DNA of 41,757 nt from a virus: positions 1 through 41,757 of IMG/VR virus record IMGVR_UViG_3300029570_000020. One strand, given 5' to 3'. The position numbers were made by a program, and so were the translations under genes. The notes under the pieces are model-generated. The model was not told the DNA's origin, ran no database searches, and saw only the letters and a program-made list of their open reading frames with translations. Positions 1 to 6,014 of this stretch are shown here, piece by piece; the stretch's first letter is position 1; every line of letters begins with the position of its first letter.

Positions 1-170
1 CGCCGGAAACGCCAGCCGTAGCCGCGCCGTACTTGCCGGCCGTAGCCGCGCCGGCATCGCCGGCCGTAGCCGCGCCGTACTTGCCGGCCGTAGCCGCGCC
101 GGCATCGCCGGCCGTAGCCGCGCCGGAAACGCCAGCCGTAGCCGCGCCGTAATCGCCAGCCGTAGCCTGT
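1..170. repeat. 24-bp tandem repeat array (about 7 units in this copy) encoding GAATAG[D/K/V][A/Y/S]
   Basis: Repeated gccg[g/c]...gtagccgcgcc units with a 24-nt period are read directly. The array continues at 41700-41757. Confidence 0.9.
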
Positions 171-752: not shown

Positions 753-1354
753 TCTTTGATTTCCTCCCATTCAAAGCGGCCCTTGCCGCTGTTTCTCCAC
801 TGCCCAAGCCCGCGCTTTGCGCCGTAGTCGAGGCATTCACGAACCATATCCTCAAGCTTGGGGTCAAGGCATTCGATTTCAAACTCTGCTGTTGCACCTG
901 CGGGAACGCTCTCCGACTTTGCGATGCTGACGCGTTCGCCCATCGGGGTTTGCGCCCGCAGGGGGCGCTCGCAGAAATCAACCTTCATGCCGTGCAGGTC
1001 GTAGGGAATCTCGCGCGGGGTAACGAAAATCAAGCCATCGATAGCCTGTTTGTACGCCTTGATAGCTGCGCAAGCCTTGCCGCCTGCATAGCCAGCCTTG
1101 CCCGCTTTGGCAAGCATTTTGCAGCTGTCCTTGAACATACCCTTTACCTGATAGTCATACAGGAACGGCGTGCCGTCGGCAGTTTTGGGAAAGACGGTGA
1201 CGCGGTCTTCTGCGTTCTGCGCCTTGATATTGTCCACTTCTTCGGCGGTGAGGTCGCCGGTGGGGGCCTTGCTGGCAATATAGGTTGCGAGAAGTTCTTC
1301 ATTGCTGGGGGAAGAACCGAGAACTTCTTCCAAAAGAGTGATTTTTACTTTCAT
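749..1354 (-). CDS. Conserved early phage protein of unknown function with a RAMP/Cas7-like motif pattern
   Basis: 201-aa ORF with normal composition. Motifs: YDYQVKGMFKDS, ERVSIAKSESVPAGATAEFEIEC, and the G-rich C-terminus RGLGQWRNSGKGRFEW. Confidence 0.45.
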   Translation of the reverse strand: MKVKITLLEEVLGSSPSNEELLATYIASKAPTGDLTAEEVDNIKAQNAEDRVTVFPKTADGTPFLYDYQVKGMFKDSCKMLAKAGKAGYAGGKACAAIKAYKQAIDGLIFVTPREIPYDLHGMKVDFCERPLRAQTPMGERVSIAKSESVPAGATAEFEIECLDPKLEDMVRECLDYGAKRGLGQWRNSGKGRFEWEEIKE

Positions 1355-1375: not shown

Positions 1376-1878
1376 TAAAATCGGTTGCTTTTCGGTGCCT
1401 ATGCCAGTCTACGCAATGCCTACGCAATGCGGTACTCCGCCATGCCGTTGCGGTGTCATTCGTCGCGTGGCCTCGCCATTCCATTGCCAATCAGAGCAAG
1501 CAGCACAAGGCTTTTCCACTGCTAATCAAATCGGTGCCTCCGAAAAACCTTGCCGGGCTATTCCGTTGCGTTGCATCTCTGTTCACTGCATCGCCTTGCC
1601 TTCGCGTCGAATCTCAATGCTATGCCTCTGCGTCGCAACGAAGCGCTTTGCCGAAGCGGTGCAACTCTACTCATTGCTTTGCCTTGGCAAAGCAACTCTC
1701 CGCCTTACCTTGGCTCTGCGAGACATTTCATTTCCGTTGCAACTCACTTCAATACCAAGCCTTGCCTTTGCAGCTCCATACACGGCTTAGCCTTTGCTTA
1801 TCTAACGAAGCAGTTCCGTTGCCATGCAATGCACCTCCATGCCATTGCTGTGCCTGGCTAAGCGGCGCAATGCCGCTG
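1376..1878. repeat. About 500-bp non-coding, motif-iterated region (candidate origin/iteron or regulatory leader)
   Basis: No credible ORF on either strand. CCGTTGC occurs 4 times (1445, 1563, 1734, 1816). GCAATGC occurs 4 times (1413, 1424, 1826, 1867). GCAACTC occurs 3 times (1661, 1692, 1739). There is a perfect 10-bp inverted repeat at 1674-1695. Confidence 0.5.
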
Positions 1879-2366: not shown

Positions 2367-2404
2367 TTTTTCACCTCCCTAGTAAAAATTAGAAGTAAAC
2401 AAAA

Positions 2405-2433
2405 TTGACTGCCGCGACACAATACGCTATAAT
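2405..2433 (+). promoter_or_regulatory. Consensus sigma-70-type promoter P1 (TTGACT-17-TATAAT)
   Basis: TTGACT at 2405-2410, 17-nt spacer, TATAAT at 2428-2433, read directly. Confidence 0.7.
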
Positions 2434-2439
2434 CTGAAT

Positions 2440-2734
2440 TGCCAGAGTAAGGCAGAAAGGAAGGTGGTCGTCCCTTGACCCAACTTTTGAGTATGCCAGT
2501 TCCAGACTAAAGAAATTGCGTAACGCGCTATGGCTTAAACGGCTGCCCCAAAGCTGCCAAAGGTTACGGCAAGTCCACAGAATTGCAAGTTCGTTTTGCA
2601 AGCAGCGGATGCGCATTGCACAAAGGACCGTGTACTTGCCCGCTCACATTGAGCGGTTCCGTTGCTGCAAACTTGTTCTGGTAAAAAACTTTGGGAAAAA
2701 TCCGTCTGCTAACGAACAGCAGGCGGATTTTTTT
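2440..2734 (+). ncRNA. Candidate ~295-nt non-coding RNA in the immunity region
   Basis: Bounded by P1 and an intrinsic terminator. No SD-preceded ORF. Internal hairpins, e.g. CCGCTCA-cat-TGAGCGG around 2640-2657. Confidence 0.5.
2696..2734. terminator. Bidirectional rho-independent terminator
   Basis: Stem 2701-2710 (TCCGTCTGCT) pairs with 2718-2727 (AGCAGGCGGA). A5 lies upstream and T7 downstream. Confidence 0.7.
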
Positions 2735-2756
2735 GCTGTCGCGGCAGTGTAAGGTG

Positions 2757-2963: not shown

Positions 2964-3314
2964 ATGTTCTATGACAACTTTATTAGATTGTGCGCAAAAG
3001 AAAACATATCCCCCAGTGCGGCAGCAGAAGAGATGGGATTTTACAGGTCTGTTGTTACTCGCTGGGGCAAGGGAGGGAACGTTCGTAAAGCAACGCTTGA
3101 AAGGGTAGCAAACTATTTTGGCGTTACCGTAGACGACCTCATAGGAGACGATTCCGCGCAAAAAGAAAAGCCCACCGCGCAAGGCGATGGGCTAAAACTA
3201 GATTCCTATGAAGACATCGATCAGTGGCTTGACACTTTAGATGGCAAAGGTCTTGATATGGTAATTGCGATGGCAGCAGCAAAGAAGGTGAAAGTCAATG
3301 AAGATAAATCCTGA
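2964..3314 (+). CDS. CI-like XRE-family repressor
   Basis: ISPSAAAEEMGFYRSVVTRWGKGGNVRKATLERVANYFGVTVDDL is a classic XRE HTH. SD AGGTG lies 8-9 nt upstream of ATG 2964; the track starts at the in-frame GTG 2952. Confidence 0.8.
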   Translation: MFYDNFIRLCAKENISPSAAAEEMGFYRSVVTRWGKGGNVRKATLERVANYFGVTVDDLIGDDSAQKEKPTAQGDGLKLDSYEDIDQWLDTLDGKGLDMVIAMAAAKKVKVNEDKS

Positions 3315-3732
3315 TTGCGTCCGAGATGTTATGCTCGGTCTTGAAGAACAGCTCGGTTTGTTCCTGAATGATAAATGCAGTATGGAGTTTGAATGTTCCA
3401 GCCCTGATAAGCTGAAAAAATCCTCTTTTATGAGGGGCAAAGGCTATTCCCGGGAAGATATATTTTATTCTTGCTTGCAGGCTGCTGAAAATGGCTATAT
3501 CGTGGCAGAATATCGAATAGACAAAGAACTCAGAACGATAGAGTTTTTTTATATTATGTATATCACGCCAAAAGGCCATGACTTTATTGCGTCAATTTCC
3601 AATCAGCAGACGTGGCAGAAAAAAATAAAGCCCACCTTGTCAGCGGTTGGCAATGTGTCTCTTACTGTGATTGAAACGATTGCAAAAGGTGCGGTAACTG
3701 CGCTTATTGAGCATCATCAATCCGGCTCTTAA
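3298..3732 (+). CDS. DUF2513-like winged-helix protein co-transcribed with the repressor
   Basis: Overlaps the CI-like 3' end by 17 nt. MKINPDCVRDVMLGLEEQ... and ITPKGHDFIASISNQQTWQKKIK fit the DUF2513 pattern recalled from memory. Confidence 0.55.
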   Translation: MKINPDCVRDVMLGLEEQLGLFLNDKCSMEFECSSPDKLKKSSFMRGKGYSREDIFYSCLQAAENGYIVAEYRIDKELRTIEFFYIMYITPKGHDFIASISNQQTWQKKIKPTLSAVGNVSLTVIETIAKGAVTALIEHHQSGS

Positions 3733-3943
3733 AGGCATTGTGCGGGCGGAACGCCGTGTTCCCCTGTGCTGCAATTACACTGGCCGCAATAGCTCTGTCC
3801 AGCTCTAACGGAAGATTTTGTGCATCGTAAAAGTTCATGCCGGAGACTTCAATCAGTTTCAGCATTTTTTCGATGACTTCATCCTTTTTCTTCCTGTACT
3901 CGCTGTCGTCGCACTTGTTGTAGACATCAATTCTATCCCGCAT
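3704..3943 (-). CDS. Hypothetical protein (79 aa)
   Basis: ORF track. AT-rich. Its start overlaps the stop of the upstream small ORF. Confidence 0.45.
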   Translation of the reverse strand: MRDRIDVYNKCDDSEYRKKKDEVIEKMLKLIEVSGMNFYDAQNLPLELDRAIAASVIAAQGNTAFRPHNAFKSRIDDAQ

Positions 3944-4082
3944 TGCTTGTCTCCTTTATAACCTCATTACAAATTGCAATAGCATCTTTGAGCGGCAGTT
4001 CCCGCATAAGTTGCTTTGCGCGTTCTCTTAAACTAAGTATCGTACTTTTTTCGACTTCTGTCAATTGTTCTTTTTTCATCAT
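3933..4082 (-). CDS. Hypothetical small protein (48-49 aa)
   Basis: Manual read: (M)MKKEQLTEVEKSTILSLRERAKQLMRELPLKDAIAICNEVIKETSNAG. GGGGG SD upstream. Below the track length cutoff. Confidence 0.4.
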   Translation of the reverse strand: MMKKEQLTEVEKSTILSLRERAKQLMRELPLKDAIAICNEVIKETSNAG

Positions 4083-4928: not shown

Positions 4929-6014
4929 ATGAAAAGAACAAATACAGCGAGATGGATTGAATCTGCCCAGCGTTGGCAGATAAACGTGCAGAAAGACGGC
5001 GTGCGCAAGACGTTTACCAGCGCCAAACCGGGCCGCACAGGCCAGAGGGAAGCTAACAAAAAAGCAGATGAATGGCTTGACATAGGCGTAAAGACGGAAC
5101 GCATTAAGGTTTCTGACGCATGGGAACAGTTGCTGCAGCAGAAAAAACTTGTGTCTGATGCAGAATACAAAAACATGGCATCGTTCGGCCGCTCCCATTT
5201 GCTGCCGGCCATCGGGATCAAGTCGATAAAAACCGTTACTGAACAGGATTTCCAAAAAATTATAGATTATGCGTTTCGCCATCCACAGGGGAACAGCAAA
5301 GATCCCTTATCCAAAAAGACGTTACAGAACTATGCCAGCTACTGCAAGCAGTTTGTGAATTTTTGCCGAAAATCAAAATGGACAACGCTTGAGCTTGAGG
5401 AGTTACAGATTCCGGCAGCGTCCAGAAAAAAAGGAAAGAACGTGCTGACAGTTGAAGCGCTGAACACGCTGTTAAAAGTAGATACGACCATCATGCGCGG
5501 AAAATCTGTGCATGATGAATACATAAATTATTATAGGTTCCAAGTGCTAACAGGCATGCGGCCCGGTGAAATGCGGGGGCTGCGATGGGAAGATGTTGAC
5601 GGGAATCTGTGCAGACTAAAGCAGGCTATCAATGCGCACGGTCAAATCACGCAGGGAAAAAACGAAAACGCATTGCGCACGGTAGTGCTATCCAGACGCG
5701 CAGTGGACGTGCTGGAAGCTCAGAAAGCAGTGACTGGAAAGCAGGCCTATATCTTTCCAATGGCATCCATGCACACCTATTACCACCGCTGGCAGCGCTA
5801 TCAGCGCTCTAATGACATGCCGGAGCTGAGTCTTTACGAACTGCGCCACACGTTTGTGAGTATTGCGAAGGAGCTGCCGACTGGCGAGTTAAAGCAGCTA
5901 GTCGGGCATAGCGAGGATATGGACACATACGGCACATACTCCCACTACATCGCTGGAGATGACGAACGGACAGCCAAAAACCTACAAGAAATCTTTGATA
6001 GATTGGTGGACTAA
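4929..6014 (+). CDS. int: Tyrosine recombinase / phage integrase
   Basis: 361 aa. Motifs TGMRPGEMRGLRWEDV, LYELRHTFVS and GHSEDMDTYGTYSHY (R..HxxR..Y catalytic pattern). Adjacent to attP. Confidence 0.9.
   Translation: MKRTNTARWIESAQRWQINVQKDGVRKTFTSAKPGRTGQREANKKADEWLDIGVKTERIKVSDAWEQLLQQKKLVSDAEYKNMASFGRSHLLPAIGIKSIKTVTEQDFQKIIDYAFRHPQGNSKDPLSKKTLQNYASYCKQFVNFCRKSKWTTLELEELQIPAASRKKGKNVLTVEALNTLLKVDTTIMRGKSVHDEYINYYRFQVLTGMRPGEMRGLRWEDVDGNLCRLKQAINAHGQITQGKNENALRTVVLSRRAVDVLEAQKAVTGKQAYIFPMASMHTYYHRWQRYQRSNDMPELSLYELRHTFVSIAKELPTGELKQLVGHSEDMDTYGTYSHYIAGDDERTAKNLQEIFDRLVD

Follow-up and report, generated by a model that had tools for sequence, protein, structure and literature searches.

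Short cis-antisense RNAs are known from the lysis-lysogeny regions of phage lambda (OOP) and phage P22 (sar), where they are simple hairpins of 69 to 77 nucleotides (nt); we know of no open reading frame (ORF) in either RNA and of no fold in them that is conserved across phages. Face-to-face promoters are found at the genetic switches of coliphage 186 (pR/pL) and of pCF10 (prgQ/Anti-Q), and in pCF10 a small peptide ORF lies on a terminated, structured RNA that is opposed by convergent transcription. The Erm, Cat, and TnaC leaders are leader-peptide attenuators with short arrest peptides, and the 5' "Stab-SD" elements of Gram-positive bacteria are stabilizers. The element in this report is a transcription unit of about 295 nt on the plus strand of a viral DNA of 41,757 nt (IMG/VR record IMGVR_UViG_3300029570_000020, positions 1 to 41,757; "the window"), at positions 2440 to 2734. 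It belongs to the orphan RNA family FuFi-1, and its resemblance to the systems above appears to be one of functional analogy, not of homology.

In the literature that we searched, FuFi-1 is described solely in the survey of Weinberg et al. (2017; PMC5737381), the main text of which places it among the "sophisticated" orphan RNAs, publishes it without an assigned function, and, as the motifs seldom occur in 5' untranslated regions (UTRs), considers a riboswitch role improbable. The original prediction for this locus, made from the letters of the DNA, had proposed a cmscan search of Rfam for a known RNA class, and this search identified the 3' part of the unit as FuFi-1 (RF02986), with a score of 117.3 bits (E = 4.6e-25) against a gathering cut-off of 59.6 bits. 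The match is full length (model positions 1 to 175), with the terminator as the last helix of the model. The window copy shares with the published motif the helices, the junction bases UUAAA, AGAA, UGCA, and GGUAAA...UUUGGG, the built-in 3' intrinsic terminator, and, through its relatives, the Firmicutes host range; it differs by an insertion of about 40 nt in hairpin P4 and by a micro-ORF that stops 7 nt before helix P1. By score, covarying helices, 3' terminator, and host range alike, the unit is a further member of this family, and we consider its identity and the anatomy described below close to certain. New here are a conserved domain comprising a Shine-Dalgarno (SD) sequence and a micro-ORF, a helix (helix L) that connects this domain with the fold, the synteny with switch regions, and two covarying tertiary contacts; the first three are in neither the Rfam model nor the main text of the survey. 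BLAST searches against annotated phages gave no match for the window region, the Rfam consensus, or a typical unit, and no cultured or annotated example was found in this way.

Relatives were gathered from public collections with three patterns, for the linker, the leader, and the P2 hairpin, which replaced a less specific initial pattern (GGTAAANAANTTTGGGAA) that gave mostly chance matches (8 real loci among 119). The sample comprises 47 distinct FuFi-1 units from viral contigs of about 40 kb and from Clostridia genomes, with hosts that include Oscillospiraceae, Lachnospiraceae, Acutalibacteraceae, Ruminococcoides, Acetatifactor, and others. Rfam confirmed all 24 tested loci in which the locus end does not truncate the motif. 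We built a covariance model (R1), on which the window scores 67.6 bits, and from it a structure-guided alignment (A6) of 43 sequences, 39 of them distinct. The nearest phage-record matches of the window come from human faeces, and the window phage is probably a temperate phage of about 42 kb infecting gut Clostridia, a host that we infer from the relatives.

The unit is one self-contained promoter-to-terminator cassette. Its parts follow one another in the order sigma-70-type promoter, 5' hairpin, strong SD, 11-codon micro-ORF, a 7-nt gap, and FuFi-1 core (Table 1). The promoter (promoter P1), which the original prediction took for a perfect consensus, is near-consensus (11/12), with a predicted start near 2440; a promoter-like site is present at the same position relative to the micro-ORF in 35 of 39 distinct related units, which argues that it is not a chance match. 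The terminator that had been predicted about 295 nt further on is present, with the stem and U7 tract as described, and its hairpin has a folding energy of -22.9 kcal/mol on the plus strand (z = -5.15). The full stretch from 2440 to 2734 is likewise more stable than its shuffled versions (z = -4.82), and the earlier proposal of a discrete RNA gene of this length is borne out by promoter, terminator, and fold. Two longer ORFs already listed for the region, 2516..2752 (+) and 2389..2616 (-), of 78 and 75 amino acids, do exist; we rejected them as genes, as they overlap covarying RNA helices.

The fold of the core is well supported by the alignment, in which each of the nested helices (P1, P2, P3, P3a, and P4) includes pairs that have changed on both sides. 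Standard pairs occupy 86.7% of the cells, compared to 59.8% in shuffled and 36 to 51% in slid controls, and the covariation score is 0.664, compared to 0.197 for shuffled alignments (none of 500 reached the observed value) and 0.11 to 0.18 for slid controls. The frequent G.U pairs in the alignment indicate that the plus strand is the structured one. In addition to the nested helices, we found two long-range pairings, neither of which is shown in the cmscan structure line. The first (helix 3), between the P2 loop and the linker, is paired in 80% of the cells, with four pairs changed on both sides, and takes forms such as CUCAA/UUGAG, CUAAA/UUUAG, and CCCUAA/UUAGGG in relatives. The second (helix 6) joins the P3a loop to the loop of the terminator and is paired in 91% of the cells, with six of seven pairs changed on both sides; in 36 of the 39 distinct sequences the two loops are perfect Watson-Crick complements over 7 nt or more, in about 20 versions, and the complement averages 6.97 nt within a sequence, compared to 2.89 nt between sequences. 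Invariant unpaired bases are also kept across the relatives. These covariation patterns point to a three-way junction locked by the two tertiary pairings. The pairing of the terminator loop with the P3a loop makes the terminator itself an element of the fold, so that the RNA, once terminated, is the folded product.

Nearly every core is preceded by a conserved counterpart of the 78 nt that, in the window, connect the predicted start (about 2440) with the Rfam core. At the 5' end is a small hairpin, the GGCA of which could pair instead with UGCC at 2494 to 2497, an alternative that is used in the minimum-energy fold. The 5' domain as a standalone stable structure was considered and rejected, its fold being no better than that of shuffled sequences (z = -0.5). 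An SD sequence of the AGAAAGGAG type follows, with an NTG start codon 7 to 10 nt further on, across the units. The window ORF reads TTG ACC CAA CTT TTG AGT ATG CCA GTT CCA GAC TAA, and equivalent SD-preceded ORFs, recovered with three independent sampling patterns, are present in 46 of the 47 distinct units, all with the shared pattern SD, NTG, and M-[TKSE]-x-[LIFC]-L-x-[LM]-P-[VA]-[PL]. The original prediction had stated that no SD-preceded ORF lies within the unit, which is incorrect, and had named a conserved small ORF with ribosome-profiling signal as an observation that would speak against it; a conserved, SD-preceded ORF is indeed there, and its translation is predicted from the codon variation.

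This variation was scored over 32 distinct leader sequences. The start codon is TTG, ATG, GTG, or CTG, with invariant second and third bases; codon 4 is [C/A/T]TT, for Leu, Ile, or Phe; codon 7 is [T/A/C]TG, for Leu or Met; and codon 9 is G[T/C]T, for Val or Ala. Codons 8 and 10 are CCN (CTC at codon 10 in two units), with third-base entropies of 1.5 and 1.07 bits, respectively. Such substitutions appear typical of coding sequence, and in distant units the nucleotides have changed while the peptide is kept, as in MKAILNLPAP, MSQFLNLPAP, MEAFLNLPAP, and, where TTG has become TTA, MSQCLTLPVP. Beyond codon 10, both sequence and length vary, giving peptides of 11 to 29 amino acids. Leader and core also occur together: all nine leaders found with the leader pattern alone precede an Rfam-confirmed FuFi-1 core, and all eight cores found with the P2 pattern carry the leader, one of them (locus L315) with a broken frame. 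The micro-ORF is very probably translated. Its start codon is placed where loop and stem meet in a small hairpin (GGUC 2466-2469/GACC 2477-2480) for which compensatory variants are seen in two units (L126 and L308). Programmed frameshifting at CUUUUGA was considered and rejected, as the distance between this site and the fold varies from about 25 to more than 100 nt and a canonical slippery heptamer is lacking.

The end of the micro-ORF lies at the foot of the fold in two different ways. In short variants, including the window, a gap of 13 nt lies between codon 10 and helix P1. In long variants, helix L forms between codons 12 to 14 or thereabouts, in many cases with the stop codon among them, and the 8 nt that directly precede helix P1. 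There are compensatory versions of helix L (UUAUAAGG/CCUUAUAA, CAUUGAGA/UCUCGAUG, and CUGCGAGG/CCUUGCAG), and its pairing averages 7.2 nt within sequences and 6.0 nt between sequences. ORF and fold appear from these arrangements to be physically coupled in every variant. The long units (for example L150, L153, L126, L270, and L299) have an extra middle domain of 100 to 200 nt, closed by helix L, with the conserved blocks GCAACUGAUACGG and CCACCGUAU..GUACUCCUUG, and this domain is missing from the window clade.

In the window, the unit lies on the opposite strand within the leader of the leftward early operon and points toward a cI-like repressor gene and an integrase gene, which belong to a rightward set together with a DUF2513 gene. 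The leftward promoter-like site P3 is the sole such site upstream of the start codon at 2366, so that early transcription to the left would pass through the unit in antisense, in agreement with the original prediction. Directly 5' of the terminator stem is an A5 tract (2696 to 2700), and on the minus strand the hairpin, which there contains one C.A mismatch and precedes a U5 tract, has a folding energy of -18.5 kcal/mol. The hairpin is thus terminator-like both ways in the window, as had been claimed, and weaker leftward; two-way termination does not extend to the family, as many relatives lack the A-tract.

Table 1. Locations of the parts of the FuFi-1 unit and of neighboring features in the 41,757-nt window
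Feature	Position	Strand	Details
Promoter P1 of the unit	2405-2433	+	-35 TTGACT 2405-2410, 17-nt spacer, -10 TATAAT 2428-2433; 11/12
5'-terminal hairpin	2440-2454	+	UGCC-AGAGUAA-GGCA; GCC-loop-GGC in nearly all aligned units
Shine-Dalgarno region	2454-2467	+	AGAAAGGAAGGUGG; AAAGGAG 7-10 nt before start in related units
Micro-ORF, 11 codons	2475-2510	+	TTG start 2475, TAA 2508-2510; predicted peptide MTQLLSMPVPD
FuFi-1 RNA core	2518-2732	+	Rfam RF02986 match, model R1, covariation
Helix P1	2518-2524/2563-2569	+	FuFi-1 core
Helix P2	2541-2545/2554-2558	+	FuFi-1 core
Helix P3	2570-2575/2670-2675	+	FuFi-1 core
Helix P3a	2583-2588/2596-2601	+	FuFi-1 core
Extended P4	2602-2665	+	FuFi-1 core
Linker	2676-2695	+	FuFi-1 core
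Terminator helix	2696-2732	+	final helix of FuFi-1 core
Tertiary pairing 1	2547-2553 with 2689-2695	+	P2 loop CCCAAAG with linker CUUUGGG; predicted from covariation
Tertiary pairing 2	2589-2595 with 2711-2717	+	P3a loop GUUCGUU with terminator loop AACGAAC; predicted from covariation
Intrinsic terminator	2701-2734	+	stem 2701-2710/2718-2727 (10 bp, GC-rich), 7-nt loop 2711-2717, U7 2728-2734
Inverted repeat, left arm	2408-2419		ACTGCCGCGACA; 12 bp, perfect; inside promoter P1
Inverted repeat, right arm	2737-2748		TGTCGCGGCAGT; just 3' of terminator
Promoter-like site P3, leftward	2902-2874	-	TTGACT-17-TATAAT
First leftward early gene, 64 aa	2172-2366	-	weak "transcriptional repressor" PHROG match
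HTH_26/DUF739-like gene, 98 aa	1879-2175	-	after the 64-aa gene
cI-like XRE-family repressor gene	2964-3314	+	next gene on the strand of the RNA
Tyrosine integrase gene	4929-6014	+	same strand as the RNA

Most of the sampled units are in prophage switch regions and are co-oriented with a cI-like repressor and an integrase. A leftward promoter-like site lies beyond the terminator in 30 of the 39 distinct units and is mostly strong (at least 10/12), and a promoter-like site inside the unit is seen in 8 of the 39, mostly weak (9/12). The first downstream gene on the same strand encodes an XRE/CI-type helix-turn-helix (HTH) protein in 25 of 34 units, six of them with Peptidase_S24, and at least 18 units have a recombinase further on along that strand (17 tyrosine and 1 serine). 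The CI-like gene is at least 230 nt from the unit and has promoter-like sites of its own, often with a small convergent DUF739/HTH (Cro-like) gene in between (15 of the 39 distinct units lie next to such a gene, placed between terminator and repressor). The first divergent genes upstream are assorted early genes. The usual order is therefore early genes leftward, FuFi-1 unit rightward, Cro-like gene leftward, CI-like gene rightward, and integrase gene, from which the window clade departs in that the early promoter and the first early gene flank the unit; where the unit lies with respect to the Cro-like gene varies between phage lineages. At least one unit lies outside a phage switch. In Acetatifactor (L131), a complete micro-ORF and FuFi-1 core, with an ATG start and MKAILNLPAPLIQGRIIKTEQR, occupy positions 3576 to 4026 (-) of a chromosomal locus, between an MBOAT gene (an MBOAT/DUF6783 pair) and rplM-rpsI, which are on the same strand.

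The whole window unit is bracketed by a 12-bp inverted repeat, a length reached in none of 200 shuffled sequences. The sister clade keeps such a repeat with a different sequence (15 bp in L184 and 10 bp in L161), and the other FuFi-1 types are without it. The repeat could represent a pair of operators, a site of recombination, or, in the leftward transcript, a long-range stem. An invertible switch is not supported, as the 18 distinct window-type units that were compared, drawn from about 30 contigs, all show one orientation. The region from the terminator to the cI-like gene holds four copies of an operator-like sequence, TGTTGC-N4-GTTTAC, in both orientations (2755 to 2770, 2847 to 2859, 2882 to 2897, and 2910 to 2925), which surround the divergent promoter-like sites, and a half-site, GTAAAC (2395 to 2400), adjoins the -35 element of promoter P1. 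Between leftward genes, about 525 nt with no convincing gene (1355 to 1880) hold degenerate direct repeats, namely CTACGCAATGC twice plus variants, 45-nt units five times, and CATTGCTTTGCCT four times, and look like an iteron array or origin, or else a protein-binding array. At the edge of the window (1 to 167) are seven copies of a 24-nt GC-rich tandem repeat, CGCCGGAATCGCCGGCCGTAGCCG, probably coding for a repeat-containing protein that continues beyond this edge. A second orphan motif, the D12-methyl RNA (RF02950), is present in full length at 32960 to 33023 (-), with 88.2 bits against a cut-off of 57. In a window-like phage (L156), the leftward early leader upstream of the Cro-like gene contains a borderline Hammerhead_II match at 1255 to 1318 (+), with 37.5 bits against a cut-off of 37, near FuFi-1 at 1590 to 1803 (-); no counterpart was detected in the window.

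The explanation that we favor, tentatively and at somewhat less than even confidence, is that the unit is a moron-like cassette that is transcribed in the lysogenic direction, makes a folded RNA on which ribosomes load, and in the window phage acts as a brake in cis. Like a phage moron, it has its own promoter and its own terminator and sits between phage genes of the other direction, and in the window clade it is flanked by the inverted repeat. The product of this autonomous cassette would be a stable, compact RNA, with the ORF ending at the foot of the fold, and the conserved fold and unpaired bases would recognize a conserved cellular partner. Because ORF and fold appear coupled in every variant, the ribosome is the best candidate for this partner. 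In the window phage, head-on transcription from the near-consensus promoter, the two-way terminator-like hairpin, and the full complementarity of the RNA would all lower leftward early expression, favoring lysogeny. The mechanistic part of this proposal is the more doubtful one.

Several observations weigh against this proposal. The cis-antisense part cannot be general, given the chromosomal unit in Acetatifactor and the many relatives without the A-tract for leftward termination, and the ribosome is suggested as partner by geometry alone. No conserved protein partner or receptor-type gene was found near the units, whose neighbors are generic HTH, Cro, CI, and early genes, and the survey reports negative self-cleavage assays for FuFi-1 (PMC5737381). 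The 5' region also shows constraints at the RNA level, that is, invariant TTG Leu codons, the GGUC/GACC hairpin, and a UGCC/GGCA/UGCC triplet with two alternative pairings; some of what looks like coding conservation could thus have structural causes. In a Lachnospiraceae metagenome-assembled genome (L315), a 1-nt insertion breaks the LPxP frame and the nucleotides downstream are still conserved, which reflects either an assembly error or a hint that the RNA-level constraint dominates 3' of codon 8.

The alternative that survives best, although we consider it unlikely, is a pure cis-antisense regulator in the manner of lambda OOP and P22 sar, which would act by pairing and collision with the early transcript and by the two-way stop, with the fold serving only for stability. 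The original prediction had drawn the same analogy, and the topology does fit: like OOP and sar, the unit is a promoter-to-terminator RNA oriented like the repressor, and by the positions of promoters and terminator it is opposite to, and overlaps, an early lytic transcript. P3 as the only leftward promoter-like site before the early genes, the head-on layout in 30 of the 39 units, the terminator-like hairpin on both strands of the window, and the placement of the unit in typical relatives between the Cro-like gene and the remaining early genes all agree with this explanation. However, antisense control requires no sequence or tertiary fold that is conserved across unrelated phages, and here the junction, two covarying pairings, and unpaired bases are kept; it also leaves the conserved SD and micro-ORF unexplained, and the upstream A-tract is absent in many members. 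Complementarity alone thus does not explain the function, and the Acetatifactor unit, which belongs to no phage switch, shows that the family cannot have the antisense control of phage early operons as its general function. FuFi-1 further differs from OOP and sar in that its unit is about 295 nt long, pseudoknotted, and equipped with a micro-ORF, overlaps a leader rather than a coding region, and has members outside phage switches. The likeness to coliphage 186 and pCF10 consists of convergent promoters at a switch and, for pCF10, of a peptide ORF on a terminated, structured RNA, but we know of no sequence or structural relationship, and there is no RRNPP-type receptor gene near the unit and, in our antiterminator search, no sign of regulated termination.

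A rather improbable reading would make FuFi-1 the 3' domain of a translation-coupled device. A ribosome on M-T-K-L-L-x-L-P-x-P would pause or terminate at the pseudoknotted fold, its occupancy would set the folding, stability, or termination of the RNA, and, from a position like that of lambda P_RE, the device would feed the translational state of the host into the lysis-lysogeny decision of many gut Clostridia phages.

Still less probable, in our view, is a conditional terminator or leader for repressor establishment, in which the micro-ORF would act as an attenuator or arrest peptide and read-through would yield an anti-early RNA together with a sense cI/int transcript. Promoter P1 is indeed placed like lambda P_RE, downstream of the early promoter and pointing back to cI, with the repressor next on the same strand in 25 of 34 units and the integrase further on; the ORF is conserved over exactly 10 codons and then varies, as short arrest peptides generally do, and its end abuts the fold. 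With the Erm, Cat, and TnaC leaders and Stab-SD, the unit has in common a strong SD and a very short 5' ORF, of which only the first 10 codons are conserved, with structured RNA and a terminator downstream. It differs from them in that no alternative antiterminator helix was detected, no regulated gene follows directly, and the downstream RNA is a conserved tertiary fold of 160 to 215 nt rather than a simple two-hairpin platform. No conserved antiterminator pairing was found for the 5' arm of the terminator, whose best upstream partner measures 6.4 nt within sequences and 6.2 nt between sequences, and the covarying, mutually exclusive terminator and antiterminator pairings expected of a riboswitch or attenuator were not found. 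Two candidates for such a pairing were rejected: that of the 5' arm of P4 with the 5' arm of the terminator (AGCGGAUG/CGUCUGCU) is absent from the sister clade (L156 and L184), and the similarity between helix P1 and the terminator is limited to some members. The strong terminator (-22.9 kcal/mol, U7) is moreover an element of the tertiary fold, the cI-like gene of the window has its own promoter-like sites (2757 to 2785 and 2921 to 2948), a convergent Cro-like gene usually intervenes in relatives, and Weinberg et al. (2017; PMC5737381) judged the motif to be rarely 5'-UTR-like in the main text of the survey.

It is quite improbable that the peptide itself is the product, a signal or regulator of 11 to 26 amino acids (MTKLLxLPxP...) with FuFi-1 as a structured 3' UTR for termination and nuclease protection. 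The amino-acid-preserving substitutions, the NTG start variation, the strong SD, and the promoter-gene-terminator shape of a phage moron would all be accounted for, but a terminator or stabilizer would need an RNA core far less elaborate and less conserved than this one, neither the length (11 to 29 amino acids) nor the C terminus of the peptide is conserved, no receptor-type gene recurs nearby, and L315 keeps the nucleotides and breaks the frame. Covariation shows that the 2589-2595 and 2711-2717 loops pair and cannot separate intra- from intermolecular contacts. Self-assembly into dimers or rings, as in phi29 pRNA, by pairing of these loops between molecules is very improbable: nothing positive supports it, there is no link to packaging genes, and with the two loops in a single compact junction an intramolecular contact is the simpler explanation.

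FuFi-1 is now tied to one predicted transcript with a conserved micro-ORF on which ribosomes could load, and most of the sampled copies, in temperate phages of human-gut Clostridia, oppose the early lytic promoter head-on at the lysis-lysogeny switch. This anatomy and synteny make the function of FuFi-1 experimentally approachable. If the translation-coupled device were real, the translational state of the host would inform the lysis-lysogeny decision in many gut Clostridia phages. Should the RNA prove to have no effect on induction or lysogenization, the unit would still be a clean example of an RNA moron; should it have one, FuFi-1 would represent a new kind of RNA part in phage decision circuits, in a clinically relevant group of the microbiome.

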